From positions 17,835-81,834 of the forward strand of contig JAIESW010000023.1 of the NCBI GenBank assembly GCA_019745565.1: DNA of 64,000 bases, read 5' to 3'. Source of the stretch: Burkholderiales bacterium. GTDB lineage: Bacteria; Pseudomonadota; Gammaproteobacteria; Burkholderiales; Ga0077523. A program made the position numbers and the translations under genes. Below the pieces are notes generated by a model that was not told where the DNA came from, did not search any database, and was given only the letters and a program-made list of their open reading frames with translations. Positions 4,119 through 19,297 of this stretch are shown in pieces. Each line of letters starts with the position of its first letter. Positions within the stretch are counted from its first letter, which is position 1.

Positions 4119-4133
4119 TGCACTTTCCGTGCC
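4119..4133 (-). promoter_or_regulatory. Candidate sigma54 (-24/-12) promoter for pilin copy 1
   Basis: Minus strand reads aGGCACggaaagTGCAt. GG and GC are at the consensus spacing of TGGCAC-N5-TTGCA. About 60-70 nt upstream of the TTG start at 4060. Confidence 0.55.
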
Positions 4134-4159
4134 TCAAATCCGCCGGTCTCGAGGCGGGC

Positions 4160-4690
4160 TCACGCCGCCTTCGTCGCGATCAGGTTGACGCTGATCGGCA
4201 CGCCCTTGAAATCGAGTTCGCTGCTGTCGTCGAACAGTCCGAAGGAATCGACCCGTCGAATGCCCACGAAACCGGCGACCTCCAGGAAATCCCTCAGAAA
4301 TTCTTCGTTCAGCCCGACCACGTGGTAGTCGAACGCATCCGTGTGCCCACCGAACATCATGCGCATCACGATGAATCTTTCGGCTTGCGACGTCGATTCC
4401 TTCAACAGGAGCAACTCTGCGAGGGTGTCGAGATCAGGAGCACTGACGTAGAGCACGCCCCCCGGCACCAGAACCCGCAGCCATTCCTTCAGCGCCTGCG
4501 AAATGTCACCGAGATAGTCGAGGTGCTCGATGACGTGAGAGGCGTACACCTCGTGAAAAGTCCCGTCCGGAAATCTCGACAGGTCCTTGCACAACCCGAT
4601 GTGATCCACCCCTGGTCGCGGTACGGCATCGAAGATTTCCCAACCCTCCCGCGTCTCCCACCCACCGATATGCAGTTTGCGCATTGACAA
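4160..4690 (-). CDS. Small class I SAM-dependent methyltransferase (Methyltransf_11-like)
   Basis: 176 aa. KLHIGGW (degenerate motif I), FHEVYASHVIEHL, LRVLVPGGVLYVSAPD. Lower G+C than its neighbours in hand-counted samples. Confidence 0.65.
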   Translation of the reverse strand: MSMRKLHIGGWETREGWEIFDAVPRPGVDHIGLCKDLSRFPDGTFHEVYASHVIEHLDYLGDISQALKEWLRVLVPGGVLYVSAPDLDTLAELLLLKESTSQAERFIVMRMMFGGHTDAFDYHVVGLNEEFLRDFLEVAGFVGIRRVDSFGLFDDSSELDFKGVPISVNLIATKAA

Positions 4691-4743
4691 CGAACCTCAC
4701 GATTCAACGATCGCTCGAGAGTGATCCGTGCGACCTCCAGTAA

Positions 4744-4776
4744 TGCGAAAAAGGGGCCGAAGCCCCTTTTTCTTGC
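4744..4776 (-). terminator. Rho-independent terminator downstream of pilin copy 2 (duplicate of 3556-3588)
   Basis: Same GGGGCcgaaGCCCC hairpin with flanking A/T runs. On the minus strand the stem is followed by tttttcgc. Confidence 0.75.
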
Positions 4777-5248
4777 CTGCTCCTCGACGAGAAGCGAGCG
4801 CTTGCGATCAGCCCTTCGGGTAGAACTTGGTCGGGATGGTGCCACCCACCGACCAGCTGTTGCCGGAGGCATTGCAGGTCGACACCCAGACCACGTTGCT
4901 CGCGTTCACTTGCGAGTTGATGTTCTGCAGGGTCGCCGTGATCGTGGCGCCGGCGGTCGTGGCAGCGAAGCTCACGGCCGAAACGTAGCGGCCCGTGATC
5001 GCGGTGGGCAGACCGGCCGTGGCCGCGTCGCTCACACCACCGGCCGAAGAGGCACCACCCAGCGTGCCTTCCGAGCAGGCCTGGCCGGCAGCAAGACGCG
5101 CCGGTTCGGTCAGGCTGGTGGCTTCCTGGATCTTCGCGCGGATCGTGTAGTCCTGATAGGCCGGCAGCGCGATCGCCGCCAGAATGCCGATGATCGCCAC
5201 CACGATCATCAGCTCGATCAGGGTAAAGCCTTGTTGAATACGCTTCAT
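4747..5248. repeat. Direct repeat copy 2 (terminator + pilin gene)
   Basis: See 3559-4060; offset is exactly 1188 bp. Confidence 0.9.
4808..5248 (-). CDS. pilA: Type IVa pilin, copy 2 (protein identical to copy 1)
   Basis: 146-aa translation identical to 3620-4060. ATG start preceded by AGGAG. Confidence 0.93.
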
Positions 5249-5313
5249 TTATGGGACTCCTAAGGCGGTTGGACGGGTGATACACAGACGGGCGATGTGC
5301 GCCTCCGCTAAAC

Positions 5314-5328
5314 GCAAGCGGTATGCCA
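5314..5328 (-). promoter_or_regulatory. Candidate sigma54 (-24/-12) promoter for pilin copy 2
   Basis: Minus strand reads cacTGGCATaccgcTTGCGttt, which matches TGGCAC-N5-TTGCA with invariant GG/GC at the correct spacing. About 65-80 nt upstream of the ATG at 5248. Confidence 0.6.
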
Positions 5329-5543
5329 GTGGCAAGAGGGCCTCGCAAGGTCTTGGCGCAGGAGACAAATCGGCGGCTAGAGGGGCTCGGGACCCGGTCA
5401 GACCCCGTCCTGTCGCGGATTTTCCGGACGCGCTGCGCAGGGCATTCTCTCGAACCGATAGATTTCCGCGCCGGACCTTGCCGCCCGCTCGGTTTTCACC
5501 TGCGAGCCGGGACGGCACACCCGGCATTTCCTGACGTTTTCCG

Positions 5544-7223
5544 TCAGTCGCCGGAGTAGCCCGGAATGCGGGTCACATCCACCTCGTCGATCTGTTCGCG
5601 ATCGAGAAACTGCTCGGCGTAGCGCAGGTACACGCGCTCGCGCACGAAGATGTCGAACAGATCCGGATCCACGTGCCCGTTCAGCTTGAACTTGCCGAGG
5701 ATGTGCAGCGATTCGGTCAGCGTCTTGCCCTTCTTGTAGGGCCGGTCCTTCGCCGTCAGAGCCTCGAAGATGTCGGCGATGCCCATGATGCGGGCCTGCA
5801 CCGACATCTGATCGCGCGTGAGGCCGCGCGGGTAGCCCTTGCCGTCCATGCGCTCGTGATGGCCGCCGGCGTACTCGGGCACGTTCTTGAGATGCTTCGG
5901 CCAGGGCAGCGCCTCAAGCATCTTGATGGTTACCTCGATGTGATGATTGATGATCTGGCGCTCCTTGGCGGTCAGCGTGCCGGCCCGGATCGTCAGGTTC
6001 TCCAGTTCGTCGTCGGTGAGGAAGTCCACGGTCTCGCCGTGCACGTTGCGCCAGCGGTATTTCTTCGAGATCTCGCGCACGCGCTCCTGGTCCTCGGGCG
6101 GCATCGCTTCGCTGCCGACGTTGCACGCGCGCAGGAAACGGCGGTCCTCGTCGATCTCGCGGATGCGGTCGCGGAACGCCTGTTCGAGCACCGCGCCGTC
6201 ACTGCCGGCGGTGGCGAATCGTGCTGCGCCGCGCAATCGCAGCATCTCGATCTCGGCATCGCGCTTGATGACCTCGAAACGGGTGTCGATGAGCTCGATG
6301 CGGTCAGCGATGGTCTGCAGCTTGGTCGCCTTGTCGACCACGTGCACCGGCGTCGTAACCTTGCCGCAATCGTGCAGCAGGCCGGCGATCTTCAGCTCAT
6401 AGCGGTCGATGTCGTTCATCGCCCAGTCTGCGAGCGGCCCGGCGTTCGTGCCGTGGGTCGCCTCGGCCAGCATCATCGTCAGCACCGGCACGCGGTTGCA
6501 GTGGCCGCCGGTGTAGGGCGACTTGTCGTCGATCGCCTCGTTGATGAGGTTGATGAACGACTCGAACAGGTTTTCCAGCTGGAGGATCAGCAGCCGGTTG
6601 GTGAGGGCCACCGCGGCCTGGGACGCAAGCGACTGCGCGAGCCGCTCGTCGGCCTCGCTGAACGGGACGATCTCGCCGGTGGAACGGTCCTTGGCGTTGA
6701 TCAGCTGCAGCACCCCGATGATCTCGCCTTCGTGGTTCTTCATCGGGACCGTGAGGAACGACTTCGAGCGGTAACCCGTGCGCTGATCGAAGGCCTTGGT
6801 ACCCGAGAAGTCGAAGCCCTCGGCAGTGTAGGCGTCGGCGATGTTGACCGTGCTGTCCTTCAGCACCGAGTAGGCCACCACCATGGACGTGTTCTCGCGA
6901 CCGGTCTCGTCGCGCAGGCGGATCGGCTCGAACGGGATCTTGACACCCGTGGTGCCGCCCATCGCGATGCCGAGCGACTCGGTGCGGATGATCTCGAAGT
7001 TGAGCGTGTTCTGATTGTCGGCATGACGCCGGTAGAGCGTCCCGCCGTCCGCGTTCGTGATCTTCTTGGCAGCGATCAGGATGGTCTCGAGCAGCCGGTC
7101 GAGATCCTTTTCCTTCGAGAGCGCGATCCCGATCTGGTTGAGTTCCTCCAGACGCCGGATGAGATCGCCCGCGCGGACCTGGACGACCTCGGTGCGATCC
7201 TTGGTTTGGACGGGAGGGCTCAT
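5544..7223 (-). CDS. GAF domain-containing HD-GYP phosphodiesterase (predicted c-di-GMP hydrolase)
   Basis: N-terminal GAF (TGYRSKSFLTVPMKNHEGEIIGVLQLINAKD). HD motif GLLHDCGK. HHERMDGKGYPRGL is the HD-GYP signature. Confidence 0.88.
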   Translation of the reverse strand: MSPPVQTKDRTEVVQVRAGDLIRRLEELNQIGIALSKEKDLDRLLETILIAAKKITNADGGTLYRRHADNQNTLNFEIIRTESLGIAMGGTTGVKIPFEPIRLRDETGRENTSMVVAYSVLKDSTVNIADAYTAEGFDFSGTKAFDQRTGYRSKSFLTVPMKNHEGEIIGVLQLINAKDRSTGEIVPFSEADERLAQSLASQAAVALTNRLLILQLENLFESFINLINEAIDDKSPYTGGHCNRVPVLTMMLAEATHGTNAGPLADWAMNDIDRYELKIAGLLHDCGKVTTPVHVVDKATKLQTIADRIELIDTRFEVIKRDAEIEMLRLRGAARFATAGSDGAVLEQAFRDRIREIDEDRRFLRACNVGSEAMPPEDQERVREISKKYRWRNVHGETVDFLTDDELENLTIRAGTLTAKERQIINHHIEVTIKMLEALPWPKHLKNVPEYAGGHHERMDGKGYPRGLTRDQMSVQARIMGIADIFEALTAKDRPYKKGKTLTESLHILGKFKLNGHVDPDLFDIFVRERVYLRYAEQFLDREQIDEVDVTRIPGYSGD

Positions 7224-7253
7224 GAGCGGGAAGGGATCGGGATCTCAGGCGAG

Positions 7254-9659
7254 TTACTTGATACAGACGGCCCGCACCTGCTTCATGTCGGTGATGCCCT
7301 GCAGTACCTTCTCGATGCCGTCCTGCTTGAGTGTGCGCATGTTCTCGGCCAGCGCCGTAGCCACGATCTCGGCGACACGGGCGTGCTCCTGGATATGTTT
7401 CTTGATCGCGTCGGTACCGATCAGCAGTTCGTGCAGACCCACGCGACCCTTGTAGCCGGTGCCGCTGCAGGTATCGCAACCGACCGGGGTGTAGAGGGTG
7501 AACTGGCCCTTGTCGTTGCCGAAGTTCTGCACCCATTCGCGATACACGGCCTCGTAGGAACCCTTGGGGTCCTTCTTCCACGCCTCGGTGTTCTTCAACT
7601 CGACGCAGTATTCCTCGAGGATGCCCTTCAGCTCCTCCTGCGACGGCGTGTGCGCCGCCTTGCACTTGGAGCAGAGGCGCTTCGCGAGACGTTGCGCCAG
7701 CACGCCCAGCAGGGCGTCGGCGAAGTTGAACGGGTCCATCCCCATGTCGAGCAGGCGGATGATCGATTCCGGCGCACTGTTGGTGTGCAGGGTGGCGAAC
7801 ACCAGGTGACCGGTGAGCGAAGCCTCGATGCCGATGGAGGTGGTCTCCTTGTCGCGCATTTCGCCGACCATGATGATGTCCGGGTCGGCTCGCAGGAACG
7901 CCCGCATCGCGCTGGCGAAGTTGAGTCCCGCCTTGGGATTCATCTGCACCTGGCGCAGGCCCTTCTGCGTGATTTCCACCGGGTCCTCGGCGGTCCAGAT
8001 CTTGGTCTCGGGCGTGTTGAGGTAGCCCAGCACGGAGTGCAGCGTGGTGGTCTTGCCCGAACCGGTCGGGCCGCAGACGAAGAACAGGCCGTAGGGCTTC
8101 GAAACCGTTTCCTTGACGTTCTTGAAGTTGCGCGCCGACAGGCCCAGCTTCTCCAGCGGGATGGGTTCGCCCGCCGCCAGGATACGCATGACGATGTCCT
8201 CGACACCGCCCTGCGAAGGCACCGTCGCCACCCGCAGTTCGATGTCGAGCGGGCCGAACTTCTTGAACTTGATCTTGCCGTCCTGCGGCTTGCGCTTCTC
8301 CGAGATGTCGAGGTCGCACATGATCTTCAAGCGCGCCGCGAGGGCGTTGCGGTAGGACGCGGGCACCGAGATGTAGGGCACCAGCGTACCGTCCTTGCGG
8401 AACCGCACCTCGGTCTTGGCCTTACCGGGGAAGGGTTCGATGTGAATGTCGGAAGCGCCCTGGTGATAGGCATCGACGATGATCTTGTTGACGAGCTTCA
8501 CCAGCTCGTTGTCCTGGGCGAGCGAAGCGTCGTCGCTGCCGCCGCCGCCGATGAAATCATCGTCCGATTCGTCGTCGAGCTTGCCGAGCAGTTCGCCGAT
8601 GTCGGCACTGTCCATCTCGATGCCCATGCCACCGCCGCCGCCGCCGAAATACTGGTCCAGCGTCGCCCGGAACTCACGGAGCGTGCTCACGCGATACACC
8701 ACCTTGGCGCGCGGGAACACGTTGCCGACGATGCGCGAGGCCCGCAGGCGCTCGGGATCGGTGGTGAGGACCAGCAGGCCCTCCTTGCTTTCCTCGAGCG
8801 GCACCCAGCCGCCGCTCTCGACGAAGTCGCGCTTCAGGTTCTTCAGGAGGTCCATCGGCCGGATGCGGTCGCCGCGGAACGGCTCGTAGGGCACGCCGAA
8901 GAACGCCGACAGCGCCTCGCCGATGGCCGTGGGCTTAACCTGGAACTCGTCGGTGAGCACCTCCTCGATGTCGAGGCCCTTGCGACGCGCCGAGCGGGTG
9001 GCGAGCTCCATCTCCTCCGCCGACAGCACGGCATTCGTGACGAGCGCGTCGTACTTGCCGCGCAGTACCGTGGTGGACTTCTGGCGCAGCTTGAGCGCAA
9101 TCGCAAGCGTCTCGCTCAAGTTGACGATGCCTTCCTCGGCGAGCGGCCCGAAGTTCTCGCCGTTCTTCGAGTTGATCACCTGCACGATGCCGACCAGTTC
9201 GTTGGTCCCGGCTTCCAGCACCGGGCAGACCAGCATCTGCTTGGTCCGGTAGCCGGTGCGCTTGTCCACTTCCTTCAGGAACTTGAGCTGCGGGCTCAGG
9301 TTGCGCAGCTCGTTCTCGTCGTACACATCGCGGATATTGGCGAGCTTCTTGGTGGACGCGACGAAGCCTGCGATCGACTGGTCGTTGATCGGCAGCTTGA
9401 GATCCTTGAACGAGGTGAGGCCGGTCTTGACCTTGGAGATGATGGCCTGCTTGTCCTCCGCGACCGCGTAGACCGTGAGACGATCGGCATCGAACAGCGA
9501 GCAGATGTCCTGCGATAGCTCGAGCATGATCTCGTCCACGTTGGTCGTGGCATGGATCCTGTTCGTGACGGCCTGGAGCTTGCGCTGGAACTCCAGCTTG
9601 TTGCTCATCTCGGCCAGGTTCTGACTGGCCTGCGGCTTGGCGTCGAGCACCGAACTCAT
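7254..9659 (-). CDS. GspE/PilB-family secretion/pilus ATPase with N-terminal GAF domain
   Basis: 801 aa. N-terminal GAF-like region (TGYRTKQMLVCPV...LVGIVQVINSK). T2SSE_N-like segment. Walker A GPTGSGKTTTL, Asp box DPDIIMVGEMRD, LVFATLHTN, tetracysteine CSKC...CDTC. Confidence 0.9.
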   Translation of the reverse strand: MSSVLDAKPQASQNLAEMSNKLEFQRKLQAVTNRIHATTNVDEIMLELSQDICSLFDADRLTVYAVAEDKQAIISKVKTGLTSFKDLKLPINDQSIAGFVASTKKLANIRDVYDENELRNLSPQLKFLKEVDKRTGYRTKQMLVCPVLEAGTNELVGIVQVINSKNGENFGPLAEEGIVNLSETLAIALKLRQKSTTVLRGKYDALVTNAVLSAEEMELATRSARRKGLDIEEVLTDEFQVKPTAIGEALSAFFGVPYEPFRGDRIRPMDLLKNLKRDFVESGGWVPLEESKEGLLVLTTDPERLRASRIVGNVFPRAKVVYRVSTLREFRATLDQYFGGGGGGMGIEMDSADIGELLGKLDDESDDDFIGGGGSDDASLAQDNELVKLVNKIIVDAYHQGASDIHIEPFPGKAKTEVRFRKDGTLVPYISVPASYRNALAARLKIMCDLDISEKRKPQDGKIKFKKFGPLDIELRVATVPSQGGVEDIVMRILAAGEPIPLEKLGLSARNFKNVKETVSKPYGLFFVCGPTGSGKTTTLHSVLGYLNTPETKIWTAEDPVEITQKGLRQVQMNPKAGLNFASAMRAFLRADPDIIMVGEMRDKETTSIGIEASLTGHLVFATLHTNSAPESIIRLLDMGMDPFNFADALLGVLAQRLAKRLCSKCKAAHTPSQEELKGILEEYCVELKNTEAWKKDPKGSYEAVYREWVQNFGNDKGQFTLYTPVGCDTCSGTGYKGRVGLHELLIGTDAIKKHIQEHARVAEIVATALAENMRTLKQDGIEKVLQGITDMKQVRAVCIK

Positions 9660-9766
9660 GGCATTGCCCTCGGAAGGAAACGCGATTCCGGTCGATGCGG
9701 CGCACGCGGCACGCTCTTCATCCCTCGGAAACCCATTTTAAACCTCGCACTTCGTGAAACCACCAA

Positions 9767-9791
9767 CCGGCCGCGCCCCAGGCGCGACCGG
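9767..9791 (-). terminator. Candidate terminator hairpin downstream of the phosphodiesterase gene
   Basis: ccggccgcgcc-cca-ggcgcgaccgg, an 11-bp GC stem with one mismatch. On the minus strand it is followed by ttggtggttt. Confidence 0.45.
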
Positions 9792-9873
9792 ACCTCAGCC
9801 ACTCCCCAGGATACTTTGAAGGACCCTGCACCCCAGCGTCGCCGGGCGCTGCCCATTCACGGATCCTGGCATC

Positions 9874-10638
9874 TCAGAACTTGAAGACATGCCCGTTCGA
9901 GAGCATGCGTGGGTTGAACGCCCCCGCACACTCTTCGACCTCTGCCATGGTGAGCGCTCCCTCGCCAGGCTTGAGATGGGTGATGAAGATGCGCGCCTGA
10001 CGTTTCAGCTTGGCCAGTTCCTCGGCCAGCATGTCGGGCCAGAGATGCTTCGAAGCGATCGCGAGATCCTTCTCGCCGTTGCTGAAGGCAGTCTCGATGA
10101 TGACGTAGCGCAGGTTCTCGATGCGGTTCACCTCGGCCCAGAGCTCGTCGCAGGCGCCGGTGTCGCCGGTGAACAGGAGGGCCGCGGCGCCGCTGTCGAG
10201 GACGTAGCCCACCGCGGGCACGGTGTGGTTCACCTTGACCGGGGTGATCCTGCGGCCGTTCAGATCCACGGCCTGCCCGGGCGTGACCGGCGCGAAGCGC
10301 AGGAACGGCTTGTCCGTGTCGGGGATGGTGGAGAAATCCGGCCAGATCTTCCAGTTGAAGATGTGGTCACGAATGATCTGCAGGGTCTCGGCCGTGGCAT
10401 GCACCGTGATCGGCTGCGAGCGCATGCCGCCTACGGTATCCACCAGGAACGGCAGCATCGCCAGGTGGTCGAGATGTGAGTGCGTGAGGAAGACGTGGTC
10501 GATCAGCTGCAGCTCGGAGAGCGTGAGATCGCCCACGCCGGTCCCGGCATCGATCAGCACGTCCTGGTCGAGCAGCATGGACGTGGTCCGGAGGTTGCCC
10601 CCGATCCCGCCGCTGCAGCCGAGTACACGGATGAGCAT
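9874..10638 (-). CDS. Class II 3',5'-cyclic-nucleotide phosphodiesterase (metallo-beta-lactamase fold)
   Basis: 254 aa from MLIRVLGCSGG. LTHSHLDHLAML matches the H-x-H-L-D-H class II cAMP-PDE signature. The longer track ORF (to 11625) overlaps the cyclase gene out of frame. Confidence 0.8.
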   Translation of the reverse strand: MLIRVLGCSGGIGGNLRTTSMLLDQDVLIDAGTGVGDLTLSELQLIDHVFLTHSHLDHLAMLPFLVDTVGGMRSQPITVHATAETLQIIRDHIFNWKIWPDFSTIPDTDKPFLRFAPVTPGQAVDLNGRRITPVKVNHTVPAVGYVLDSGAAALLFTGDTGACDELWAEVNRIENLRYVIIETAFSNGEKDLAIASKHLWPDMLAEELAKLKRQARIFITHLKPGEGALTMAEVEECAGAFNPRMLSNGHVFKF

Positions 10639-10640
10639 CG

Positions 10641-12866
10641 CTATTTCGTGTCGAAGTCGAAGACGCCGTCCCAGTTGGGCGGCGGCGGATCGCTGCGGAA
10701 GCGCGCGATCCGCTTGATGAATTCCTTGTACAGCCCGGACTCCGGCTCGGCCTTCTGCAGATTGAGAAGCTGCAGCTCGGCCTTGTCCCAGTCCTGCGCG
10801 CGGTAGAACTTGAGCGCCTGCGCGAAGAGCTTCAGGCGATCCAGCGTTTCCTTGTCGACGCTGCCCTGCAGGCCGATCGGCTCGAAGATCGCGACCGGCT
10901 CGTCCTTGCCCTTGACGCGCACGCGATCGAGTTCGCGCACCACCACATCGGGAGCCGCCTTGCGCGTCTCCTCGCCGATGATCATCGTGACGCCGTACTT
11001 CTTGGTGAGCGATTCGAGCCGCGACGCGAGGTTCACCGCATCGCCCATCACGGTGTAGGCGACGCGCACGGCCGAGCCCATGTTGCCCACGCTCATGCGC
11101 CCGGTGTTGAGACCGATGCCGATGGACAGCGGTCGCCACCCGTTCGCGCGGAACTCGGCGTCGAGCGATTTCAGCGTGATCTGCATCTCGAGGCCGGCCA
11201 GCACGGCGTTGCGCGCGTGATCCTTGTCCTCGATGGGGGCGCCCCAGAAAGCCATGATCGCATCGCCCATGTATTTGTCGATGGTGCCGCGATGGCCATA
11301 GATCACTTCGGTCATGGGGGTGAGATAGGCGTTCATGAGCCGCGACAGCGCTTTCGGGTCGAGTCCTTCGGACAAACTGGTGAAGTCGCGCACATCGGAG
11401 AACAGCACGGTGAGCTCGCGGCTCTCGCCCTCCATGGAAAAGCGCTCCGGATCGCGGCTCATTTCCTCCGCGATTTCGGGCGGCACGTACTGGCCGAAAC
11501 GACTGGTGATCTGGCGCTTGACACGCGTCTCCACGAAGTAGCCGTAGGACATGTTGAGCGCGTACAGCATGACCACCATAAGCAATCCAGATGCCAAAGG
11601 CAGCACCAGATTGCCGCCGTTCCAAATGACCAGGTTACCGGCGACGACGGCTGCCAGCACACCCAGCGTGACCAGCGTCGCCTTGAGCGGGTTCAGGAAC
11701 GGCAGCACCACGGCCATGATGACGCCGGTCACCAGGAGCAGGAACACCTCGGCGCCCAGCACGTAGGGCGGCTTCTGCTTGATCGTCCCGTCGAGCATGC
11801 CGCCGATCAGGTTGGCGTGGATCTCGACCCCGGGGTACAGCGGCCCTGCCGGCGTCGACCGCAAGTCCTGCAGGCCCGGCGCCGTGGTGCCGATGAGAGC
11901 GATCTTGTCCTTGATCTCCTCGGCCGGCACACGGTCGTGCAGCACGTCGGTGGCCGACACGTACTGGAAGCTGTGCTCCGGCCCGCGGTAGGGCACGAGC
12001 GCGTTGGCACCCCGGTCGAGCGGAACCCGCAGGTTGCCCACTTCGAGCCATTCCAGACCGGGGTAATTCTTGGTGAGCAGACCGTCGGCCGGATAGCCCG
12101 GCTTGACCGGCGGCGACCCCATCAACAGGCGCACGATCGCCAGCGCGAGGGGCTCGTAGTACGCACCCTTGTACTCGGCGAGCATCGGCACGCTGCGATG
12201 CACACCGTCGGGATCGGTCCACGGCGTGACGTGACCGGCGCCGGCCGCTGCAGCCTGCAGTTCGGGCAGGTTGCCGCCGTACCCCGGGAACGAGGAAAAG
12301 TCGATGCGCTTGCCGGTGAACGTCCCCGCGGGGAGCACGGGCTTCGGGATCGCGCCGATCGCGATCCCCTCCTTGCCGGTCAGCAGGCTGGAGAAGTAGT
12401 AGCCCAGCACGACGGGCCGCCCTTTGAGCGACTCCGCGAAGATCCGGTCGTATTCGAGCTTCGGCGCGAGGGCTTCCAGCGCACTCCGGTACTGGACGTT
12501 GCCCTTGAGGTCGCCCTCGCCGAACTGGCGCAGCAACTCGAGCGCGGAGCTTTCGTCCCGCTCCGGGAAGAAGACGTCGAAGCCGAGCACGGCGACGTGG
12601 TGCCGCTCAAAGATCTTGTCGACCAGCGCCGCGAGCCGGTCACGCCGCCACGGCCAGCGGCCTTCCTCGGCGAGACTCTTCTCGTCGATGTCGATGATGA
12701 CCACGCGCGGATCCACGGTGCGCGGCATCGTGAGCAGCAGCCGCGCGTCGTAGGCGATGGCCTCGAGCTGATCGATGGCACGCAACCGCGACCAGCCCGC
12801 CGCGTGGGCGAGGAACACCAGCAACACCGCGACGCCCAGCAGGATGCGGATCGCGTGTTTCTTCAA
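10641..12866 (-). CDS. CHASE2 sensor domain-containing class III adenylate/guanylate cyclase
   Basis: TTG start after GGGGAG. N-terminal TM + CHASE2 (EEGRWPWRRD). Multi-TM segment. Cyclase core LTVLFSDVRDFTSLSE, GTIDKYMGDAIMAFWGAP, YTVMGDAVNLASRLE. Confidence 0.9.
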   Translation of the reverse strand: MKKHAIRILLGVAVLLVFLAHAAGWSRLRAIDQLEAIAYDARLLLTMPRTVDPRVVIIDIDEKSLAEEGRWPWRRDRLAALVDKIFERHHVAVLGFDVFFPERDESSALELLRQFGEGDLKGNVQYRSALEALAPKLEYDRIFAESLKGRPVVLGYYFSSLLTGKEGIAIGAIPKPVLPAGTFTGKRIDFSSFPGYGGNLPELQAAAAGAGHVTPWTDPDGVHRSVPMLAEYKGAYYEPLALAIVRLLMGSPPVKPGYPADGLLTKNYPGLEWLEVGNLRVPLDRGANALVPYRGPEHSFQYVSATDVLHDRVPAEEIKDKIALIGTTAPGLQDLRSTPAGPLYPGVEIHANLIGGMLDGTIKQKPPYVLGAEVFLLLVTGVIMAVVLPFLNPLKATLVTLGVLAAVVAGNLVIWNGGNLVLPLASGLLMVVMLYALNMSYGYFVETRVKRQITSRFGQYVPPEIAEEMSRDPERFSMEGESRELTVLFSDVRDFTSLSEGLDPKALSRLMNAYLTPMTEVIYGHRGTIDKYMGDAIMAFWGAPIEDKDHARNAVLAGLEMQITLKSLDAEFRANGWRPLSIGIGLNTGRMSVGNMGSAVRVAYTVMGDAVNLASRLESLTKKYGVTMIIGEETRKAAPDVVVRELDRVRVKGKDEPVAIFEPIGLQGSVDKETLDRLKLFAQALKFYRAQDWDKAELQLLNLQKAEPESGLYKEFIKRIARFRSDPPPPNWDGVFDFDTK

Positions 12867-12926
12867 GGGCTCCCCGTCGTCTCGTCGTGTACGTGCGTCG
12901 GGCGCCGCCAGCGTGCCGCACCGGCC

Positions 12927-12953
12927 GGCGCGCTGGACTGGTCCAGCCGCGCC
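12927..12953. other. GC-rich stem-loop between the FHA gene and the cyclase gene
   Basis: ggcgcgctggac-tg-gtccagccgcgcc, 12-bp arms with a one-base bulge and no following T-tract. Confidence 0.5.
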
Positions 12954-12981
12954 GTCGAAGGGCGGTGCGGTGCGTCCTCGA

Positions 12982-13797
12982 CTACGCGGCCCGGAAGAAG
13001 AACTCCATCTTGACGCCGGCCAGTTCGATCACGTCGTGATCGTTCAACTGATGGGCCTGCGGATCGAGCGCCTTGCCGTTCACCACCGGGAAGCTCGCGC
13101 CTTCCACGTGAGTGATGAAGTAGCCCTGCGGCCGCTTCGCGATCACCGCGACCTGGACACCGGGCTTGCCGAGCGTGGTGAGCGCCTTGGTGAGCGGCAG
13201 TTCCTTGCCCGCGTTCGGTCCGGACAGGATCTGGATGACCCCCTGCTGGCCGCCGGCCGCGACGGGTGCCACCGGCGTGATGGTGGCCGGAGCGACCACC
13301 TGCTGCGCCCTCATCTCCGCCGCCGCCGCCGCAGTCTCGGCAGCCATACCCAGCTGCGGGTTGATCTGCGTGTCGGACAACGCCGTCTTCACGCCGCTGG
13401 TGGTCGTGAGATTGGTCTGCGTGTCGCCGAGCTTCGGCTCCGCAGGCGCCTTGGGCGGGGCGCGCAGCACCATGGTCTTCTCGAAGTCGGCCGCCGTCGT
13501 GGTGCTGGGCGCCTCGTTCACGTACTTCAGCTTGTACTTGCCGATCTCGATCACGTCGCTGTTCTGCAGGAAGTGCTTCTTGATCGGCTGACCGTTCACG
13601 AGGGTCCCGTTGGTACTGCCCAGGTCCTCGAGGAAGGAGTCGTTCAGGATCGTGACGATGGCGGCGTGCTCGCCGCTCACGGCCAGATTGTCGATCGGAA
13701 TGTCGTTGTGCGCCTTCCGACCGATCGTCGTGCGCTCCTTCGTCAGCGTGTACTCCTTCAGCATCACGCCGTCGAGAGTGAGAATCAACTTAGCCAT
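12982..13797 (-). CDS. FHA domain protein (canonical N-terminal FHA plus degenerate C-terminal FHA-like module)
   Basis: Start MAKLILTLDG at 13797. N-terminal TIGRKAHNDIPI...VSGEHAAI...STNGTLVNG. Ala/Thr/Pro-rich linker. C-terminal TLGKPG...VVNGKAL...VIELAGVKMEFF lacks the SxxH motif. Confidence 0.85.
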   Translation of the reverse strand: MAKLILTLDGVMLKEYTLTKERTTIGRKAHNDIPIDNLAVSGEHAAIVTILNDSFLEDLGSTNGTLVNGQPIKKHFLQNSDVIEIGKYKLKYVNEAPSTTTAADFEKTMVLRAPPKAPAEPKLGDTQTNLTTTSGVKTALSDTQINPQLGMAAETAAAAAEMRAQQVVAPATITPVAPVAAGGQQGVIQILSGPNAGKELPLTKALTTLGKPGVQVAVIAKRPQGYFITHVEGASFPVVNGKALDPQAHQLNDHDVIELAGVKMEFFFRAA

Positions 13798-13813
13798 AGC
13801 ACAATCCCCGTAT

Positions 13814-14638
13814 TTACTTGAACCACGACAGGACCTTGCCCAACCACGTTTCCGCCGCCGGAAAATCGCGGTTGACCCTGACCAGAACGACGGACACGTT
13901 GTCCCGTCCACCGTTGTCGTTCGCCATCTGCACCAGTTGATTCGCCGCGAGCGGCAGGTTCGACCCCATCGCATTCAGCGTCAACTCGATGTCCTCGTCC
14001 TCGACCATGTCGTTGAGGCCGTCCGAACACAGCAAGTACAAGTCGCCCGGCCGCGCATCGTAGGTGTGGATTTCGGCCTCCACCTCCGGTTCGATGCCGA
14101 GCGCACGTGTCACCAGATTCTTGTTCTGCGACCGCCGCGCCGCTTCGCGCGTGATCATGCCGCTGTCGATCTGCTCCTGCAGCAGGCTGTGGTCGCGCGT
14201 CACCTGCTCCAGCCGGTCCTCGCGCAGGCGGTACAGCCGCGAGTCGCCGATGTGGGCCACCGACAGGCGATTGTCGCGGAACAGGGCCACCACTAGCGTG
14301 GTGCCCATGCCGGCATACTGGGGTTGGCTGCTCGCCGACTGGTAGATGGATGTGTTCGCCTTCGCGATGATGCCCTTCAGCAGTCGGATCGCCTGCAGAT
14401 CCCCGTCGGCCTGATCGAGCGAGTGCAGGTTGGTCTTGGCGATCGCCTGCCGCATCTCGGAGGTGATCAGCGCCACCGCGATCCCGCTCGCGACTTCACC
14501 GGCATTGTAGCCGCCCATGCCGTCTGCGAGTACCGCGAGTCCGACTTCACCGTCGGAGGAGATTGCATCCTCGTTGTGGGACCGCACCATCCCGGTATGG
14601 GTAGCACTGGCGATTTCGAGGGCCTTGGCCAGATTCAT
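13814..14638 (-). CDS. PP2C-family Ser/Thr protein phosphatase
   Basis: HTGMVRSHNEDA, LADGMGG, LLCSDGL, GGRDNVSVV motifs. 274 aa. Confidence 0.92.
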   Translation of the reverse strand: MNLAKALEIASATHTGMVRSHNEDAISSDGEVGLAVLADGMGGYNAGEVASGIAVALITSEMRQAIAKTNLHSLDQADGDLQAIRLLKGIIAKANTSIYQSASSQPQYAGMGTTLVVALFRDNRLSVAHIGDSRLYRLREDRLEQVTRDHSLLQEQIDSGMITREAARRSQNKNLVTRALGIEPEVEAEIHTYDARPGDLYLLCSDGLNDMVEDEDIELTLNAMGSNLPLAANQLVQMANDNGGRDNVSVVLVRVNRDFPAAETWLGKVLSWFK

Positions 14639-14642
14639 TCGT

Positions 14643-17201
14643 CTAGAGGGAAACGTCGAGGGAAGAGGAGGCGGCCGACACTTCGGCCGCGCACGCGCGC
14701 AGGGCGGCCGCCATCTGCTCGCCGGTGGCGAAGCGGTGCGACTTGTCCTTGGCGAGTGCCTTGTCGATGATGGCCACGAGCGAGTCGGGCAGCGCCGGGT
14801 TGAGCGCGAGAATGTCGGCGGGCGCCTCGTTGGCGATCTTGTACATGAGCTGCGTCATGGTCTCGCCCTGGAACGGCAGACCGCCGCTCGCCAGCTGGTA
14901 GACGGTCACGCCGAGCGAGAAGAGGTCGGACTGTCCGTCGATCTTCTGGCCCGCCAGCTGTTCGGGCGACATGAACGACGGCGTGCCGAGCACCATGCCG
15001 GTCTTGGTCTTGGACGAATCGGTGATGCGCGCGATGCCGAAGTCGGTGACTTTCACCGCGTCGGCCTCCGGGTCGTACATGATGTTCGCGGGCTTGATGT
15101 CGCGATGGACCACGTTCTGGGCATGCGCGTACGAAAGCGCTTCGGCCACCCGCGCCGCGATCGAGAGCATCTTCGGCAGCGGCAGCAGATTGCCCGACTT
15201 GGCGTGGGGTGCCAAGTCCTTGCCCTTGAGGAATTCCATCGCGATGTAGGCGAGATCGTGTTCCTCGCCCGCGTCGAAGATGGTGACGATGTACGGATGA
15301 TTCAGGCGCCCGGCGGTCTCCGCCTCGCGGAAGAAACGCTGCTTCACGTCCTCCAGCTCGTCGGGCTCGAACTCCTGGGACAGCGCCATGGTCTTGATCG
15401 CCACGACGCGGCCGATCTTCGGATCGCGGCCCAGATAGACCACGCCCATGGCGCCCTTGCCGAGTTCCTTCTCCACCTGATAGCGCCCCAGCATCGGCTT
15501 CTCGACCTGGCCGCCCTCGAGGATCAGCGTCGACGCATTGGTACGGCCGCCGGCGGTGCCGAGGATGACGGTTTCGGACATCTGCTTCGCGCGCGAGAGC
15601 TTCTGCTCAAGGTCGCGGAACTTCCGGTTGTGGCCACCCATGTACTCGTATACGGACTGAGCCTTGTTGAACTGGCGCTTGCGTTCGAAATCGAGCGCCA
15701 GGTTGTACAGGTTGTCCATGATGCCGTCATCGAGCGGACACTTGCGGAACTTGTCGAAGGCCATGTCGAGCTGGCCCTGACCCTGGAATGCGAGGCCCAG
15801 CATGCGGTTCGATTCGGCCGACTCGAGGTCGGAGCGCAGCTTGCCGCGTTCCGTGACCAGGAAGCGCTTGGTGGTGAGCGCCAGGTGGCCCACCAGCAGC
15901 AGCACCACCGCACTCATCAGCGGGATCCACATGAGCTGCGTGGTCATCAGCGCGAAATGCGCGGCGATCAGCACCACCATCAGCGCGCCGGTGAGCGCCG
16001 CTGCGAGTCCGGCCTTGAGCCGTGGCAGCAGCAGGGCGAGATACGCGGCGATCAACAGGAACACCGCCAGCGACACCCACGTACCCCACGCGGGCTGCAC
16101 GAAGAAATTCTCGTTGAGGATGCTCGACACCGAGTGCGCGAGCGTCAGCACGGGCGCCATGGCCGCCGAGATCGGCGTCACCTGGGTCGTGCCCACGCCG
16201 GCCGCCGTCGGGCCGATCAGCACGATCTTGTCCTTGTACTTCTCGGCCGGGATCTTGCCCTGCACGACGTCGTAGAACGAATCCACCTGGAACGCGGGCC
16301 GGCCGTCGCGATCCTTGTAGAAGTACGTGAACATCTGCAGGTAGGGATCGGTGCGGATCGCGAGATTGCCCAGCCGGACCCCTTCGCCCAACTGCACCTT
16401 CACGTCCTTCGGCTGCAGGTTGAGGCTGCGCGCCGCGATCATCAACGCGAGCGACGGATAGAAGTTGTCGTAGTAGCGCAGGACCAGCGGCTCGGTGCGG
16501 ATGCTGCCGTCCACGTCGGGCGCCGCGTTGAGGTGTCCGACCGCTGCCGCACCGATGCCGAACGCTTCGAGCGGCACCAGCACACCGACGGTGGAGAGCG
16601 GATACAGGCCGTTGTTGCCGGCACCCACGCGATCCTCGACCCCGGTCAGGTTGTTCTTCAGGACGAACTCGGGCAACGGATGGTCCGGATTGCCGCGCGG
16701 CTCGCCGAGGTTGAACAGCATCGGCATCACCACGGAACCGGCGCCGGAGATGGCGGCGGCGAGCTTGCGATCGGTGTTCAGGTTCTGCTCGGCCTCGCCG
16801 AGGAGCACCTCGATCTGTCCCAGCTGCTGCTGCACCGCGGGCGGTGCGGCCTGGAACGCCTCGATCAGCTTGTCGATGTAGACGAGACCCGGATCCACCT
16901 GGGGCTCGGAGAAGAAGATGGTGGTGCCGATGACCTTCGCCTTCGCCTGGGAAAGCGTTTCGACCATCTTGGCGTGCACGTCGCGCGACCAGGGCCAACG
17001 GCCGATGTTCGCGATGCTCTGATCGTCGATGGCGATGACCGCCACCTTGTCGCTCGGCGCGTGACCGGTGGCCCGCACGCCCATGTCATAGGCCATGCGC
17101 TCGAGGCTCTGCAACAGACTGCCGTTGGCGGCGACCAGCACCACGAGGGCGATCGCCACCGCAACGAACCAATCCGTCTTCCAGAATCCGAGCTTTCCCA
17201 T
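14643..17201 (-). CDS. CHASE2 sensor domain-containing Hanks-type Ser/Thr protein kinase
   Basis: N-terminal TM + CHASE2 (NIGRWPWSRD). TM block. C-terminal kinase: GKGAMGVVY, VAIK, HRDIKPANIM, DFGIAR, GTPSFMSPEQ. Confidence 0.9.
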   Translation of the reverse strand: MGKLGFWKTDWFVAVAIALVVLVAANGSLLQSLERMAYDMGVRATGHAPSDKVAVIAIDDQSIANIGRWPWSRDVHAKMVETLSQAKAKVIGTTIFFSEPQVDPGLVYIDKLIEAFQAAPPAVQQQLGQIEVLLGEAEQNLNTDRKLAAAISGAGSVVMPMLFNLGEPRGNPDHPLPEFVLKNNLTGVEDRVGAGNNGLYPLSTVGVLVPLEAFGIGAAAVGHLNAAPDVDGSIRTEPLVLRYYDNFYPSLALMIAARSLNLQPKDVKVQLGEGVRLGNLAIRTDPYLQMFTYFYKDRDGRPAFQVDSFYDVVQGKIPAEKYKDKIVLIGPTAAGVGTTQVTPISAAMAPVLTLAHSVSSILNENFFVQPAWGTWVSLAVFLLIAAYLALLLPRLKAGLAAALTGALMVVLIAAHFALMTTQLMWIPLMSAVVLLLVGHLALTTKRFLVTERGKLRSDLESAESNRMLGLAFQGQGQLDMAFDKFRKCPLDDGIMDNLYNLALDFERKRQFNKAQSVYEYMGGHNRKFRDLEQKLSRAKQMSETVILGTAGGRTNASTLILEGGQVEKPMLGRYQVEKELGKGAMGVVYLGRDPKIGRVVAIKTMALSQEFEPDELEDVKQRFFREAETAGRLNHPYIVTIFDAGEEHDLAYIAMEFLKGKDLAPHAKSGNLLPLPKMLSIAARVAEALSYAHAQNVVHRDIKPANIMYDPEADAVKVTDFGIARITDSSKTKTGMVLGTPSFMSPEQLAGQKIDGQSDLFSLGVTVYQLASGGLPFQGETMTQLMYKIANEAPADILALNPALPDSLVAIIDKALAKDKSHRFATGEQMAAALRACAAEVSAASSSLDVSL

Positions 17202-17289
17202 CCTCGCGCTTTCTGCCGTATTTTGTTGTGTTCTAAGCAGTTACCGGCGTCATTTAGACATGTTACGACTATTCGCCCTAAAGTCTATG

Positions 17290-17304
17290 ATTTGTTGAAC
17301 AAAT
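17290..17304. promoter_or_regulatory. Perfect 7-1-7 palindrome in the AT-rich leader of the kinase operon (candidate operator)
   Basis: ATTTGTTgAACAAAT. On the minus strand it lies just upstream of a weak sigma70-like TAGACT-N16-TAACAT pair. Confidence 0.35.
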
Positions 17305-17527
17305 AATGCATCGGGGTTCGCTGGGCGAGAAACGATCCGATGGACCGTGAAATCGGGCCGGAGCGTCGGGCACAGGCCGGCATGCACAGGTGTCGCTTGC
17401 TTGCAGTCTTCTGTTTTGATTCGGGAAAGGCCTTCGGGCACGCGGCGATTCGCGGCCGCGACACGGCGTGCCCCGGGAATGCCGAGGCACGTCGCAGGGC
17501 GAGACAAAAGCAATAAGCGTGCAACTG

Positions 17528-17550
17528 GTGCCGCGAGCACTCCGCGGCAC
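17528..17550 (-). terminator. Candidate terminator hairpin downstream of the DUF1330 gene
   Basis: GTGCCGCG-agcactc-CGCGGCAC, a perfect 8-bp stem. A T-rich stretch (cttattgcttttg) follows at a short distance on the minus strand. Confidence 0.4.
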
Positions 17551-17563
17551 GGGTGGACGCCCT

Positions 17564-17851
17564 CTAGAGACCCTCGACCAGGATGACGTTGGTCGCTGCA
17601 GTGCGCTGCCGGATGGCCTTCACCGGTGCGTACTCGTCCGAGTGATACCAGGCGCGCGCCGCCGCCATGCTCTCGAATTCCAGCACGACCAGCCGCTTCG
17701 GTTGGTAGCTGCCTTCCAGCACCTCGAAGCCGCCGCCACGGACGATATACGCGCCACCCGCCCCGGTGATGGTCGGAGCGACCAGCTGGCGATAGGTCTC
17801 GAATCCCATCGGATCGGACACGTCGACGTCGGCGATGAGGTAGGCGGGCAT
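17564..17851 (-). CDS. DUF1330 domain protein
   Basis: 95 aa from MPAYLIADVDVSDPMGFETYR..., with the typical DUF1330 (dimeric alpha-beta barrel) N-terminus and length. Confidence 0.75.
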   Translation of the reverse strand: MPAYLIADVDVSDPMGFETYRQLVAPTITGAGGAYIVRGGGFEVLEGSYQPKRLVVLEFESMAAARAWYHSDEYAPVKAIRQRTAATNVILVEGL

Positions 17852-17914: not shown

Positions 17915-19129
17915 TCACGCCGGCACGCCGACGAGCTCCCCCTGGGCCGCAAGCCCCAACAGCACGCGCTCGAGGTCGTCGTAGACGACCTCCCAGTCCA
18001 CGCTCTCCGCGGTGACGCGCGCCGCCCGGCCGAGCGTCCGTACGCGTTCGGCACTTGCGGCGAGGCTCGCCGCATGCGCGATGAACTCGGGTTCGGCATC
18101 GGGCCGCGCCAGCAGGCCGGTCGCCTCATGCCGGATGTGCTGACGTGCGGCTGCGTAGTCGTAGGCGACCACCGCGAGGCCGCTCGCCATCGCCTCCAGG
18201 GTGACGTTGCCGAAGGTCTCGGTGAGGCTCGCGAACAGGAACACGTCGCCCGAAGCGTAGTGCCGCGCCAGTTCCTCGCCGATACGCATGCCGGCGAACA
18301 CGTGCTCGGGGAAGCGCCGCTCCAGGCTCGCCCGTTCCGGTCCGTCGCCTACGAACACGAGCTTCACACGCGGGTCCTTGCGGCGCATCGCGTCGAATGC
18401 AGCCAGCACGACGGGCAGGTTCTTCTCGGGCGCGATCCGCCCGACGACCAGCACGACGGTGTCGTCGTCGCCCACACCCCAGAACGCGCGCAGTTCACGG
18501 CTGCGACGGGAAGGCGCGAACAACCGCGTATCCACACCACGGGCGACGACGCGCACGTTGCGGTAGCCGCTAGCGGTGAGCGCATCGCGCATCTCGCCGG
18601 TGGGCACCATCGTGACCAGTGCCTTGTTGTGGAACTTGCGCAGGTAGGCCGAGATGGGCTTGCGCAGCCAGCCGACGCCGTAGTGCCGGCTGTAGCTGTG
18701 AAAATTGGTGTGGAAGTCCGATGCCACCGGAATGCGCAACCGGTGCGCCGCCGAGACCGCCGACCATCCGAGCGGACCTTCGGTCGCCACCTGGACCACG
18801 TCCGGCCGCTTGCGCTGCCACAGCTTGATCAAGCCCTGCCGGGCCGGCAGCCCCATGCGCAGGCTGTCATAGCGCGGAATCGGCAGGCCGGGCTTCAGTA
18901 CCTCCTCGAAATTGTCGCGCGAGACCGCGGCATCGCCCGCTCCCTGGCGCGGCCGGATGAGCTGCACCTGATGGTTGCGGGCCTGCAGCGCGGCGACCAT
19001 GCGGCCGAGCGTCATCGCGACGCCGTTCACCTCCGGCGGATAGGTCTCCGTGACCACGGCCACCCGCAGGCTCGGGCGCTGCACCGGCAGCTGCTGCAAG
19101 AGAAAGGAGGACTCGAGCACGGCGCGCAC
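17915..19129 (-). CDS. Glycosyltransferase family 4 (GT-B, group 1)
   Basis: RVAVVTETYPPEVNGVAMTL N-terminus. C-terminal ...VFLFASLTETFGNVTLEAMASGLAVV (E-x7-E region). Confidence 0.85.
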   Translation of the reverse strand: MRAVLESSFLLQQLPVQRPSLRVAVVTETYPPEVNGVAMTLGRMVAALQARNHQVQLIRPRQGAGDAAVSRDNFEEVLKPGLPIPRYDSLRMGLPARQGLIKLWQRKRPDVVQVATEGPLGWSAVSAAHRLRIPVASDFHTNFHSYSRHYGVGWLRKPISAYLRKFHNKALVTMVPTGEMRDALTASGYRNVRVVARGVDTRLFAPSRRSRELRAFWGVGDDDTVVLVVGRIAPEKNLPVVLAAFDAMRRKDPRVKLVFVGDGPERASLERRFPEHVFAGMRIGEELARHYASGDVFLFASLTETFGNVTLEAMASGLAVVAYDYAAARQHIRHEATGLLARPDAEPEFIAHAASLAASAERVRTLGRAARVTAESVDWEVVYDDLERVLLGLAAQGELVGVPA

Positions 19130-19277: not shown

Positions 19278-19297
19278 CTCTCTGTCTTCCTCGCTCG

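Follow-up and report, generated by a model that had tools for sequence, protein, structure and literature searches.

We analysed a 64,000-nt stretch of DNA from a Burkholderiales bacterium (contig JAIESW010000023.1, hereafter the window) and focused on seven consecutive minus-strand genes that span 5544-17201 and join signalling enzymes to an ATPase of the PilB/GspE type. Following the minus strand, they encode a CHASE2-Ser/Thr kinase (14643-17201, 852 amino acids, aa), a PP2C phosphatase (13814-14638, 274 aa), an FHA protein for which an internal ATG was used as start (12982-13797, 271 aa), a CHASE2-class III cyclase with a TTG start (10641-12866, 741 aa), a phosphodiesterase of the metallo-beta-lactamase fold (9874-10638, 254 aa), an ATPase with GAF, MshEN and T2SSE domains (7254-9659, 801 aa), and a GAF-HD-GYP protein (5544-7223, 559 aa). 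The successive gaps are 4, 16, 115, 2, 214, and 30 nt, with 4 nt between the kinase and phosphatase genes, 2 nt between the cyclase and phosphodiesterase genes, and 30 nt between the ATPase and HD-GYP genes.

Gene calls were taken from the open reading frame (ORF) listing, and domains were assigned with Pfam and NCBIfam. Because the G+C content of the window is about 66%, it holds many long spurious antisense ORFs, such as the one at 5673-9518 on the plus strand; third-position GC singled out the genuine genes. An earlier note on this DNA, made from the sequence alone, had described the same gene order and gap sizes, and the ORF listing matched both exactly. Its domain assignments for the seven proteins were confirmed by Pfam and NCBIfam, apart from the second FHA domain, the twin nature of the CHASE2 domains, and the phosphodiesterase, whose similarity was remote.

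At the comparative level, we scanned one genome per species and retained the best 80 loci of a longer list. Presence was counted by tblastn of the window proteins against these 80 loci, with only the loci with enough flank in each denominator. All 80 belonged to Betaproteobacteria, and in each of them the match covered the ATPase including its GAF domain. The carriers included Gallionella, Sideroxydans, Sulfuricella, Nitrosomonas, Rhodocyclaceae, Propionivibrio, Methyloversatilis, Chitinimonas, Noviherbaspirillum, and Usitatibacteraceae; Chitinimonas viridis, Parachitinimonas caeni, and Noviherbaspirillum sp. Root189 are among those that can be cultured. The closest locus among the matches listed was that of 'Betaproteobacteria bacterium Ga0077523' (96% identity).

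The genes next to the ATPase gene were the most constant, with HD-GYP after it in 68 of 72 loci and the phosphodiesterase before it in 68 of 74. The PP2C and FHA genes were each found in 54/62 loci, the cyclase gene in 52/68, and the kinase gene in 35/54, and the complete set of seven was present in 30 of 50. The neighbourhood search proposed in the earlier note thus bore out its prediction, with the cluster co-localising repeatedly across betaproteobacterial families: order and strand were the same in nearly all loci and were kept down to 65% ATPase identity. Since it recurs in dozens of species, the arrangement lies far beyond chance. The gene calls were also reproduced in a Pfam-annotated relative (L164).

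Some loci departed from this layout. In three of them (L050, L064, and L080), the cyclase, HD-GYP, and phosphodiesterase genes were inverted or divergent and still abutted the ATPase gene. Several genomes carried a reduced variant –PP2C, FHA, phosphodiesterase, in some cases a cyclic nucleoside monophosphate (cNMP)-binding gene, ATPase, and HD-GYP– with housekeeping genes upstream and the kinase and cyclase genes missing. When the ORFs of all loci were clustered, only two additional conserved families appeared, a pilin and a gene of about 350 aa.

Beyond these loci, we examined a wider sample made of the best 150 ATPase representatives of 50%-identity clusters. A homologous GAF was present in 50 of them, with 33-59% identity to the window protein. 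The GAF-ATPase architecture also occurs in Nitrospira, where it is 95-98% conserved within the genus. There, the gene adjoins proS and two small PilZ-domain genes (12490-13395 in L081 and L082, 4110-4900 in L083), which hints that cyclic di-GMP (c-di-GMP) input arrives through separate PilZ proteins. In metagenomic loci of further lineages, a full-length CHASE2 cyclase adjoined the GAF-ATPase gene in L100, L102, and L103, and a CHASE2 fragment was found at a contig end in L143. An HD-GYP gene adjoined it in L087 (57% identical, full length), L126, L142, and L151, and lay 4 kb away in L156. The earlier note had looked to co-localisation in distant genomes as a sign of a functional unit: these pairwise links recur there sporadically, while the seven-gene layout is a betaproteobacterial feature, confined to that class in our samples. 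Another metagenomic contig (L120, 3874-9600) carried two full GAF-ATPase genes in tandem and an upstream GAF fragment.

The GAF-bearing ATPase and its partners

The motor part of the ATPase is well preserved. Pfam T2SSE matched with an E-value of 3e-116, and the lysine of the GPTGSGKT loop (K536), the Walker B glutamate (E600), and four cysteines (C663, C666, C728, and C731) were invariant in 77 of 77 orthologues. A long insertion separates the two CxxC pairs. For the core, the nearest matches were PilF and PilB (E about 1e-104), both of them pilus assembly ATPases, followed by GspE, with PilT far behind, and PilB was the best-scoring NCBIfam model. Databases name such proteins generically, as 'ATPase, T2SS/T4P/T4SS family' or 'GAF domain-containing protein'.

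MshE of Vibrio cholerae, PilB of Myxococcus xanthus, and PilF of Thermus thermophilus are assembly ATPases that bind c-di-GMP through an MshEN domain, for which both a receptor motif and a relaxed search form of it have been published (PMC5013675). The window ATPase aligned in register with PilF and M. xanthus PilB, and the Arg, Gly, Gly, and Gln of the motif were replaced in both 24-residue half-sites. The relaxed motif gave no match in the window ATPase and matched a control fragment of M. xanthus PilB. It was likewise absent from all 120 betaproteobacterial and all 119 Nitrospira homologues searched. Among the 150 representatives, it was found in none of the 50 with a GAF versus 34 of the 100 without one (Fisher p = 1.5e-7). 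Within this set, the GAF and the c-di-GMP site are alternatives, and this mutual exclusion suggests that the GAF is the regulatory input.

The GAF of the ATPase occupies residues ~41-189 (nt 9093-9539, minus strand); PDB sequence search, structure model, and Foldseek all bear on it. Against PDB sequences, the N-terminus of the ATPase matched best the tandem cAMP-binding GAFs of Anabaena CyaB2 (1YKD, E 8e-25), followed by PDE2A GAF-B, PDE6, PDE5, PDE10A, and Lcd1; the GAF of the HD-GYP protein matched PDE5 GAF-A, CyaB2, and PDE2A. AlphaFold2 models of the two domains reached a mean predicted local distance difference test score (pLDDT) of 81.6 for the ATPase GAF and 78.8 for the HD-GYP GAF. With these models, Foldseek returned PmGH, CyaB2, PDE2A, PDE10A GAF-B, PDE5A, PDE6C, and Lcd1 bound to cyclic AMP (cAMP). 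Judged by closest sequence and predicted fold, both GAFs belong to the cNMP-binding group.

For the pocket itself, we used as a guide the residues of PDE2A GAF-B that we take to contact cyclic GMP (cGMP): S424, F438, D439, I458, A459, Y481, D485, T488, T492, and E512. All ten letters fitted the 1MC0 chain at an offset of 206. The phosphate and ribose contacts S424, I458/A459, D485, T488, T492, and E512 align with T62, I96/A97, D132, T135, T139, and Q160 of the window ATPase, and the base contacts F438, D439, and Y481 with K78, T79, and L128. When the window protein was aligned with 50 cluster representatives (50% identity; 51 sequences in total), S95, G98, A101, D132, and T139 of the predicted pocket were at least 80% conserved, as were N163 and F170 of an NKFDE-like motif. 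Q160 and T62 were less strongly conserved than S95 and G98 –which flank I96/A97– or D132 and T139. With many of the most conserved positions falling in it, the predicted pocket appears to be under selection, as would fit a nucleotide ligand.

The protein encoded after the ATPase has an intact catalytic domain. Pfam identified GAF and HD/HD_5 domains (HD_5 7e-42), with the HD dyad at H284/D285 and the sequence HHERMDGKGYP at 455-465; each position of HD and HHExxDGxGYP was kept in 64-66 of 66 sequences. Its best solved relatives were PmGH (4MCW, E 5e-28) and V-cGAP3, and GAF-HD-GYP proteins are a recognised family, with PmGH as a member. An insertion of about 90 aa (residues ~320-405) splits the HD-GYP domain between Pfam HD (240-319) and HD_5 (406-522); insertions within HD-GYP domains that follow a GAF have been described, for example in Leptospira LIC_11189. 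A few homologues are longer (722-736 aa; P0398, P0399, and P0405) and may carry an extra N-terminal domain.

Upstream of the ATPase lie the candidate writer and eraser of a cyclic nucleotide. The cyclase consists of a CHASE2 domain (13-382), a transmembrane region, and a catalytic domain (482-657), recognised by Pfam as CHASE2 and Guanylate_cyc. The metal-binding D491 and D535, the substrate residues K531 and T605, and N612 and R616 were invariant in 52 of 52 orthologues. Class IIIb adenylyl cyclases are marked by Lys and Thr at these substrate positions, so the invariant pair makes cAMP the expected product.

The phosphodiesterase matched Pfam Lactamase_B_2 (70 bits) and carries HSHLDH (H53xH55xD57H58), kept in all 54 orthologues with a residue there. 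PDEase_II scored 37.1 bits against a gathering score of 23.7, covering only profile positions 81-144 of 340. Its best solved relative was yeast PDE1 (4OJV, E 6e-5), in NCBIfam, RNase Z models gave higher scores, all of them below cut-off, and one orthologue matched PF23023 Apyc1. The class II cNMP phosphodiesterase put forward in the earlier note thus has the HxHLDH motif and a PDEase_II score above the gathering score on its side, while the family assignment is one of remote similarity.

Between the phosphodiesterase and ATPase genes, 29 of 74 loci contain an extra gene of about 350 aa with Pfam cNMP_binding and Rhodanese domains. It is missing from the window and from its closest relatives (L001-L006), which keep all else. 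This CAP-type gene shows that a cNMP is read at this locus in relatives, and it is also a possible reader besides the GAFs. Examples are found in L010 (8743-9825), L019 (8757-9824), L016, L013, L017, L041, L062, and L072.

The earlier note had proposed two cNMP 'readers', and this proposal is strengthened by the GAF group of both domains, by a cyclase of adenylyl type, and by the additional cNMP_binding gene of relatives; the ligand itself we infer.

The remaining three genes form a phosphorylation branch. The kinase protein has an extracytoplasmic CHASE2 domain (17-385, Pfam 2e-55), a transmembrane region, and a Hanks kinase domain (574-827, Pkinase 7e-55), in which K603, D701 of HRD, N706, and D720 of DFG were invariant in 40/40 orthologues. 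The two CHASE2 domains of the cluster had been called twins, which was an overstatement, since the kinase and cyclase copies share 27% identity and are hence paralogues. The PP2C belongs to the Stp1/IreP family, whose NCBIfam model NF033484 it matched with 250.6 bits (cut-off, 230).

In the FHA protein, a Thr/Ala/Pro-rich linker joins an N-terminal FHA domain to a conserved C-terminal FHA-like domain, and the description of it as a dual-FHA protein was half borne out. The N-terminal domain is canonical (Pfam FHA 5e-21, residues 23-86), and its G26-R27, S41-G-E-H44, and T62-N63-G64 were invariant or nearly so in 16 orthologues. The C-terminal domain, strongly conserved among orthologues, is only FHA-like by profile comparison: hhalign against the N-terminal FHA profile gave a probability of 87% (E 4e-6), but the domain stayed below the Pfam threshold (19.5 vs. 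33.2) and the segment bearing the SxxH phosphothreonine loop is deleted. A search for a solved relative of this domain returned nothing meaningful.

The pilin locus and other neighbouring features

Downstream of the HD-GYP gene, and also on the minus strand, lies a type IVa major-pilin-like gene (4808-5248; Pfam N_methyl and Pilin), followed by a small S-adenosylmethionine (SAM)-methyltransferase-like gene (4160-4690; Methyltransf_11) and a second pilin gene with a TTG start (3620-4060). As the earlier note had claimed, the pilin genes are duplicated, and their proteins are identical. Pilin and terminator together form a 502-nt repeat (3559-4060 and 4747-5248) whose five mismatches are confined to the first 90 nt of the gene; the regions upstream of the two copies differ. 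The methyltransferase gene also follows the pilin in L001-L003 and L164. Since L164 has one pilin and the methyltransferase, the duplication, or a gene conversion, looks recent. Among the related loci, a pilin lay within 1.5 kb after the HD-GYP gene in 34 of 60.

The first pilin start is preceded, at a distance of 66 nt, by a sigma54-type element (TGGCATACCGCTTGC, 5314-5328, minus strand), and the second copy by a weaker GG-N10-GC element (4119-4134). Both pilins are followed by GGGGC-TTCG-GCCCC-T5 terminators (4748-4766 and 3560-3578, minus strand). The weaker element and the terminators were read from the sequence. In the window sequence alone, the sigma54 match was not significant. However, the comparison of loci bore out the promoter claimed for the pilin: of 61 pilin starts in related loci, 34 had TGGCA[CT]-N5-TTGC in the 200 nt ahead of them, most often at a distance of 60-86 nt from the start codon (background, 0.006 per 200 nt).

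With 43% identity to each other, two paralogous genes of the TPR and GT41 (O-GlcNAc-transferase-like) type, at 66-1709 and 1732-3522 on the plus strand, converge on the pilin locus. Members of this family also adjoin the pilin in L164, L002, and L003, and they may serve to glycosylate it.

The phosphodiesterase and ATPase genes are separated by 214 nt, and this spacer contains a GC-rich hairpin with an 11-bp stem and a 3-nt loop at 9767-9791 (minus strand), seen both by reading the sequence and in the minimum free energy fold, where the earlier note had placed one. It is possibly a weak terminator or an attenuator. The spacer as a whole was as stable as shuffled sequences when folded (z -0.33), and we do not propose it as a structured RNA. 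No Rfam family reached threshold in a scan of the whole window, which indicates no riboswitch or known RNA in the spacers. A promoter and terminator consensus scan of 3400-17800 gave counts no higher than in shuffled sequences and missed the pilin terminators, and it was not used.

At the upstream border of the cluster, genes for a GT4 glycosyltransferase and a diacylglycerol kinase occupy 17915-19681, between a DUF1330 gene and a redoxin gene. They are not at that position in L164, so this border has been remodelled.

Interpretation and rival explanations

In the reading that we favour, and in which our confidence is evenly balanced, this is a conserved betaproteobacterial cluster in which a cyclic nucleotide, likeliest cAMP, directly controls both a type IV pilus motor and c-di-GMP turnover, with a Ser/Thr-phosphorylation branch at its side. 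The reading builds on gene order, domains, intact catalytic residues, conservation across species, the GAF group, and loss of the c-di-GMP motif, all of which were observed directly. The conservation of the GAF pocket, the adenylyl-type cyclase, and the additional cNMP-binding gene of relatives lend it further support. Direct action of cAMP on a pilus motor is suggested by the conserved cluster, not proven by it.

Under this reading, the CHASE2 receptor cyclase would sense an envelope or extracellular cue and make cAMP, and the co-translated class II-type phosphodiesterase would clear it. The cAMP would bind the N-terminal GAF of a PilB/PilF-like ATPase that has lost the c-di-GMP-binding MshEN motif. 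Binding would alter motor activity or docking, and hence the assembly of pili from the sigma54-driven pilin encoded downstream. It would also bind the GAF of the adjacent HD-GYP protein and, by analogy with Tlr0485, may turn on c-di-GMP hydrolysis. The second CHASE2 receptor, with its Hanks kinase, the PP2C, and the FHA protein, would add a reversible phospho-Thr input; by analogy with PpkA/PppA/Fha1 in type VI secretion, its target would probably be on the output side. The GAF ligand, the sign of regulation, the phosphorylation target, and the role of the ATPase in driving pilus assembly are what we infer in this scheme.

A broader claim is one that we hold tentatively and consider somewhat doubtful: that PilB-like motors of a large family not characterised before, with at least 50 clusters (50% identity) and with members in Betaproteobacteria and Nitrospira, swapped the MshEN motif for a cNMP-binding GAF. 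If so, a pilus extension ATPase would be the direct, post-translational target of cAMP or of another cyclic mononucleotide. The betaproteobacterial motor would sit in a self-contained circuit with a receptor cyclase, a phosphodiesterase, a cAMP-activated c-di-GMP hydrolase, and the kinase, PP2C, and FHA branch, and three signalling chemistries would converge on one envelope machine. The family is abundant in the iron oxidisers Gallionella and Sideroxydans, in the nitrifiers Nitrosomonas and Nitrospira, and in wastewater Rhodocyclaceae, where attachment and floc or biofilm formation matter.

Several results weigh against the favoured reading, and we take them together with the alternatives to it. 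The alternative that survives best, though we think it unlikely, is a cAMP system in which the GAFs bind another small molecule or only dimerise and cAMP is read by the cNMP_binding-rhodanese protein or by a Crp/Vfr-type regulator encoded elsewhere in the genome. Besides the dedicated cNMP_binding protein of many loci, the pocket gives it some ground. The base-contact positions of PDE2A are not kept in the ATPase GAF, where they are K78, T79, and L128, and with base-specifying residues that differ from those of PDE2A, the choice between cAMP and cGMP is not readable from the sequence. GAF ligands in general are not reliably readable in this way; they are diverse, GDP in the case of DcpA being one example, and no ligand is known for the GAF of PmGH, the top structural match. 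However, the window and L001-L006 have no cNMP_binding gene and keep the rest of the cluster, and across the 51 sequences few sites of the GAF are as conserved as those aligned with phosphate and ribose contacts. Moreover, the nearest relatives in sequence and fold are almost all cAMP- or cGMP-binding GAFs, and the mutual exclusion of GAF and c-di-GMP motif suggests a regulatory role for the GAF. If the GAFs bind no cNMPs, the finding shrinks to a conserved, ordinary signalling neighbourhood.

Rather unlikely, in our view, is that the locus brings together separate modules –kinase, PP2C, and FHA; cyclase and phosphodiesterase; ATPase and HD-GYP; pilin– held side by side mainly by shared descent, with no direct signal passing between them. 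One ground for it is the uneven constancy of the genes: kinase and cyclase are the least constant members, missing from many loci, and the reduced loci have housekeeping genes upstream. The 80 syntenic loci all belong to a single class, so that part of their conservation is owed to common ancestry. Within the cluster, the hairpin and the 214-nt gap ahead of the ATPase gene point to probably at least two transcription units, and the pilin has a sigma54 promoter of its own. In Nitrospira, the neighbourhood of the GAF-ATPase gene contains none of the other six cluster genes, and in ~70 of 80 metagenomic loci of further lineages (37-48% ATPase identity) the ATPase gene is solitary among unrelated housekeeping genes; in these lineages, the source of the ligand would not be local. 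The hairpin, the separate pilin promoter, the variable kinase and cyclase genes, and the solitary ATPase genes all speak for a coupling that is loose.

The favoured reading fits better with other features of the same loci. Order and strand are kept to 65% ATPase identity in several families, functionally different genes lie only 2-30 nt apart, and the rearranged loci retain cyclase, phosphodiesterase, and HD-GYP genes beside the ATPase gene. In distant lineages, the ATPase is found independently beside a CHASE2 cyclase or an HD-GYP gene. In addition, two cNMP-type GAFs lie next to a cNMP synthase and hydrolase pair.

We regard as improbable a third alternative, that the GAF-ATPase powers another machine (type II secretion, a competence or MSHA-like fibre, or other export) and that its adjacency to a pilin is incidental. 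The ATPase scored 493.9 bits with the PilB model TIGR02538 against a cut-off of 675.65 and 443.7 bits with the GspE model TIGR02533 against 630.25, below cut-off in both cases. Neither the window nor the 10-kb flanks of related loci contained genes for PilC, PilD, or PilM-Q (platform, prepilin peptidase, and secretin). The long insertion between the CxxC pairs and the presence of a downstream pilin in only 34 of 60 loci point the same way. Against this, the core is nearer to PilF and PilB than to GspE, PilB gives the highest NCBIfam score, and what lies downstream most often is a type IVa pilin gene with a conserved sigma54 promoter; the Nitrospira gene lies beside two PilZ genes. The 64-kb window contains no second PilB-like ATPase gene.

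Finally, we consider very improbable a Pycsar-like anti-phage system made up of the genes for cyclase, phosphodiesterase, and cNMP-binding protein, with the kinase as a defence kinase: PADLOC matched the cyclase to PycC (112 bits), the kinase to PD-T4-6, and, weakly, the cNMP domain to PycTIR, and a phosphodiesterase orthologue matched Apyc1, but a TIR or transmembrane effector is missing, the cyclase combines purine-specifying (Lys/Thr) residues with a CHASE2 receptor part, and the locus is a stable part of the core genome with housekeeping flanks in dozens of species, unlike defence islands. We rejected a defence system, as the PADLOC matches were limited to generic catalytic domains and no system matched as a set.

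Comparison with known systems

In the searched literature, which took in few subscription journals, we found no description of a GAF-bearing PilB/GspE-type ATPase or of this cluster. The earlier note had supposed that a cNMP-GAF gate on such an ATPase, coupled to an HD-GYP, was uncharacterised. In these searches, this held for the ATPase. However, Tlr0485 already provides a characterised case of a GAF-HD-GYP protein activated by cAMP through its GAF, which leaves the GAF-ATPase arm and the cluster as a whole as the parts that look uncharacterised. Other enzymes of c-di-GMP turnover also respond to cNMPs: Lcd1 is a diguanylate cyclase (GGDEF) with a cAMP-binding GAF, and Bd1971 is a cNMP-activated EAL enzyme. 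The window protein shares the GAF-HD-GYP architecture of PmGH and Tlr0485, with HD and HHExxDGxGYP intact, and differs from them in its HD-GYP insertion of about 90 aa and in being encoded right after a GAF-ATPase, near the presumed source of cAMP.

Compared with the GAFs of CyaB1/CyaB2, PDE2A/5/6/10, and Lcd1, the GAF of the window ATPase keeps the I-A-G and D...TG..T segments that contact phosphate and ribose. The outputs are different, being here a secretion-type ATPase and an HD-GYP domain.

At the sensory end, the cyclase resembles CyaD1, CyaD2, and CyaK of Sinorhizobium meliloti, CHASE2-transmembrane-class III cyclase receptors that answer an external cue; the likeness is one of architecture. 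In S. meliloti, the downstream reader is a Crp-like regulator, and not a GAF protein as predicted for the window. The phosphorylation branch recalls PpkA/PppA/Fha1, the threonine-phosphorylation pathway of type VI secretion, in which genes for a receptor Hanks kinase, a PP2C, and an FHA protein also lie beside the ATPase of an envelope-spanning machine. The machine is a different one in the window, the sensor of the kinase is CHASE2, and the FHA protein has a second, degenerate FHA-like domain.

A parallel for the logic of the cluster is found in Pseudomonas aeruginosa, where CyaB, CpdA, and Vfr work with Pil-Chp, and where pilus biogenesis is governed by cAMP at a level fixed by a membrane cyclase and its dedicated phosphodiesterase. 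There, the sensor is MASE2 and the phosphodiesterase the class III CpdA, against CHASE2 and a class II-like enzyme in the window. Moreover, cAMP acts on transcription through Vfr in P. aeruginosa, whereas the predicted receptor in the window is a domain of the motor protein, so that control would be post-translational.

For the motor itself, the comparison is with MshE, PilB, and PilF. The window ATPase shares with them the ATPase family, the N1 (T2SSE_N) fold, and an N-terminal extension of the motor, which senses a second messenger in those proteins and is predicted to do so here. It differs in the cNMP-type GAF added in front, with a cyclic mononucleotide and not c-di-GMP as the predicted ligand.

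Two ways are known in which second messengers control type IV pili: through transcription in the case of cAMP (Vfr), and through the motor or its partners in the case of c-di-GMP (MshE, PilB, and FimX-PilZ). A motor with its own sensor of the cAMP/cGMP type would be a third route, and it would explain how a surface or envelope cue is coupled to pilus extension within seconds in bacteria without a c-di-GMP-binding PilB. With writer, eraser, and readers linked in one compact locus, the cluster also lends itself to studies of cross-talk between cAMP and c-di-GMP and of the input of a Ser/Thr kinase.

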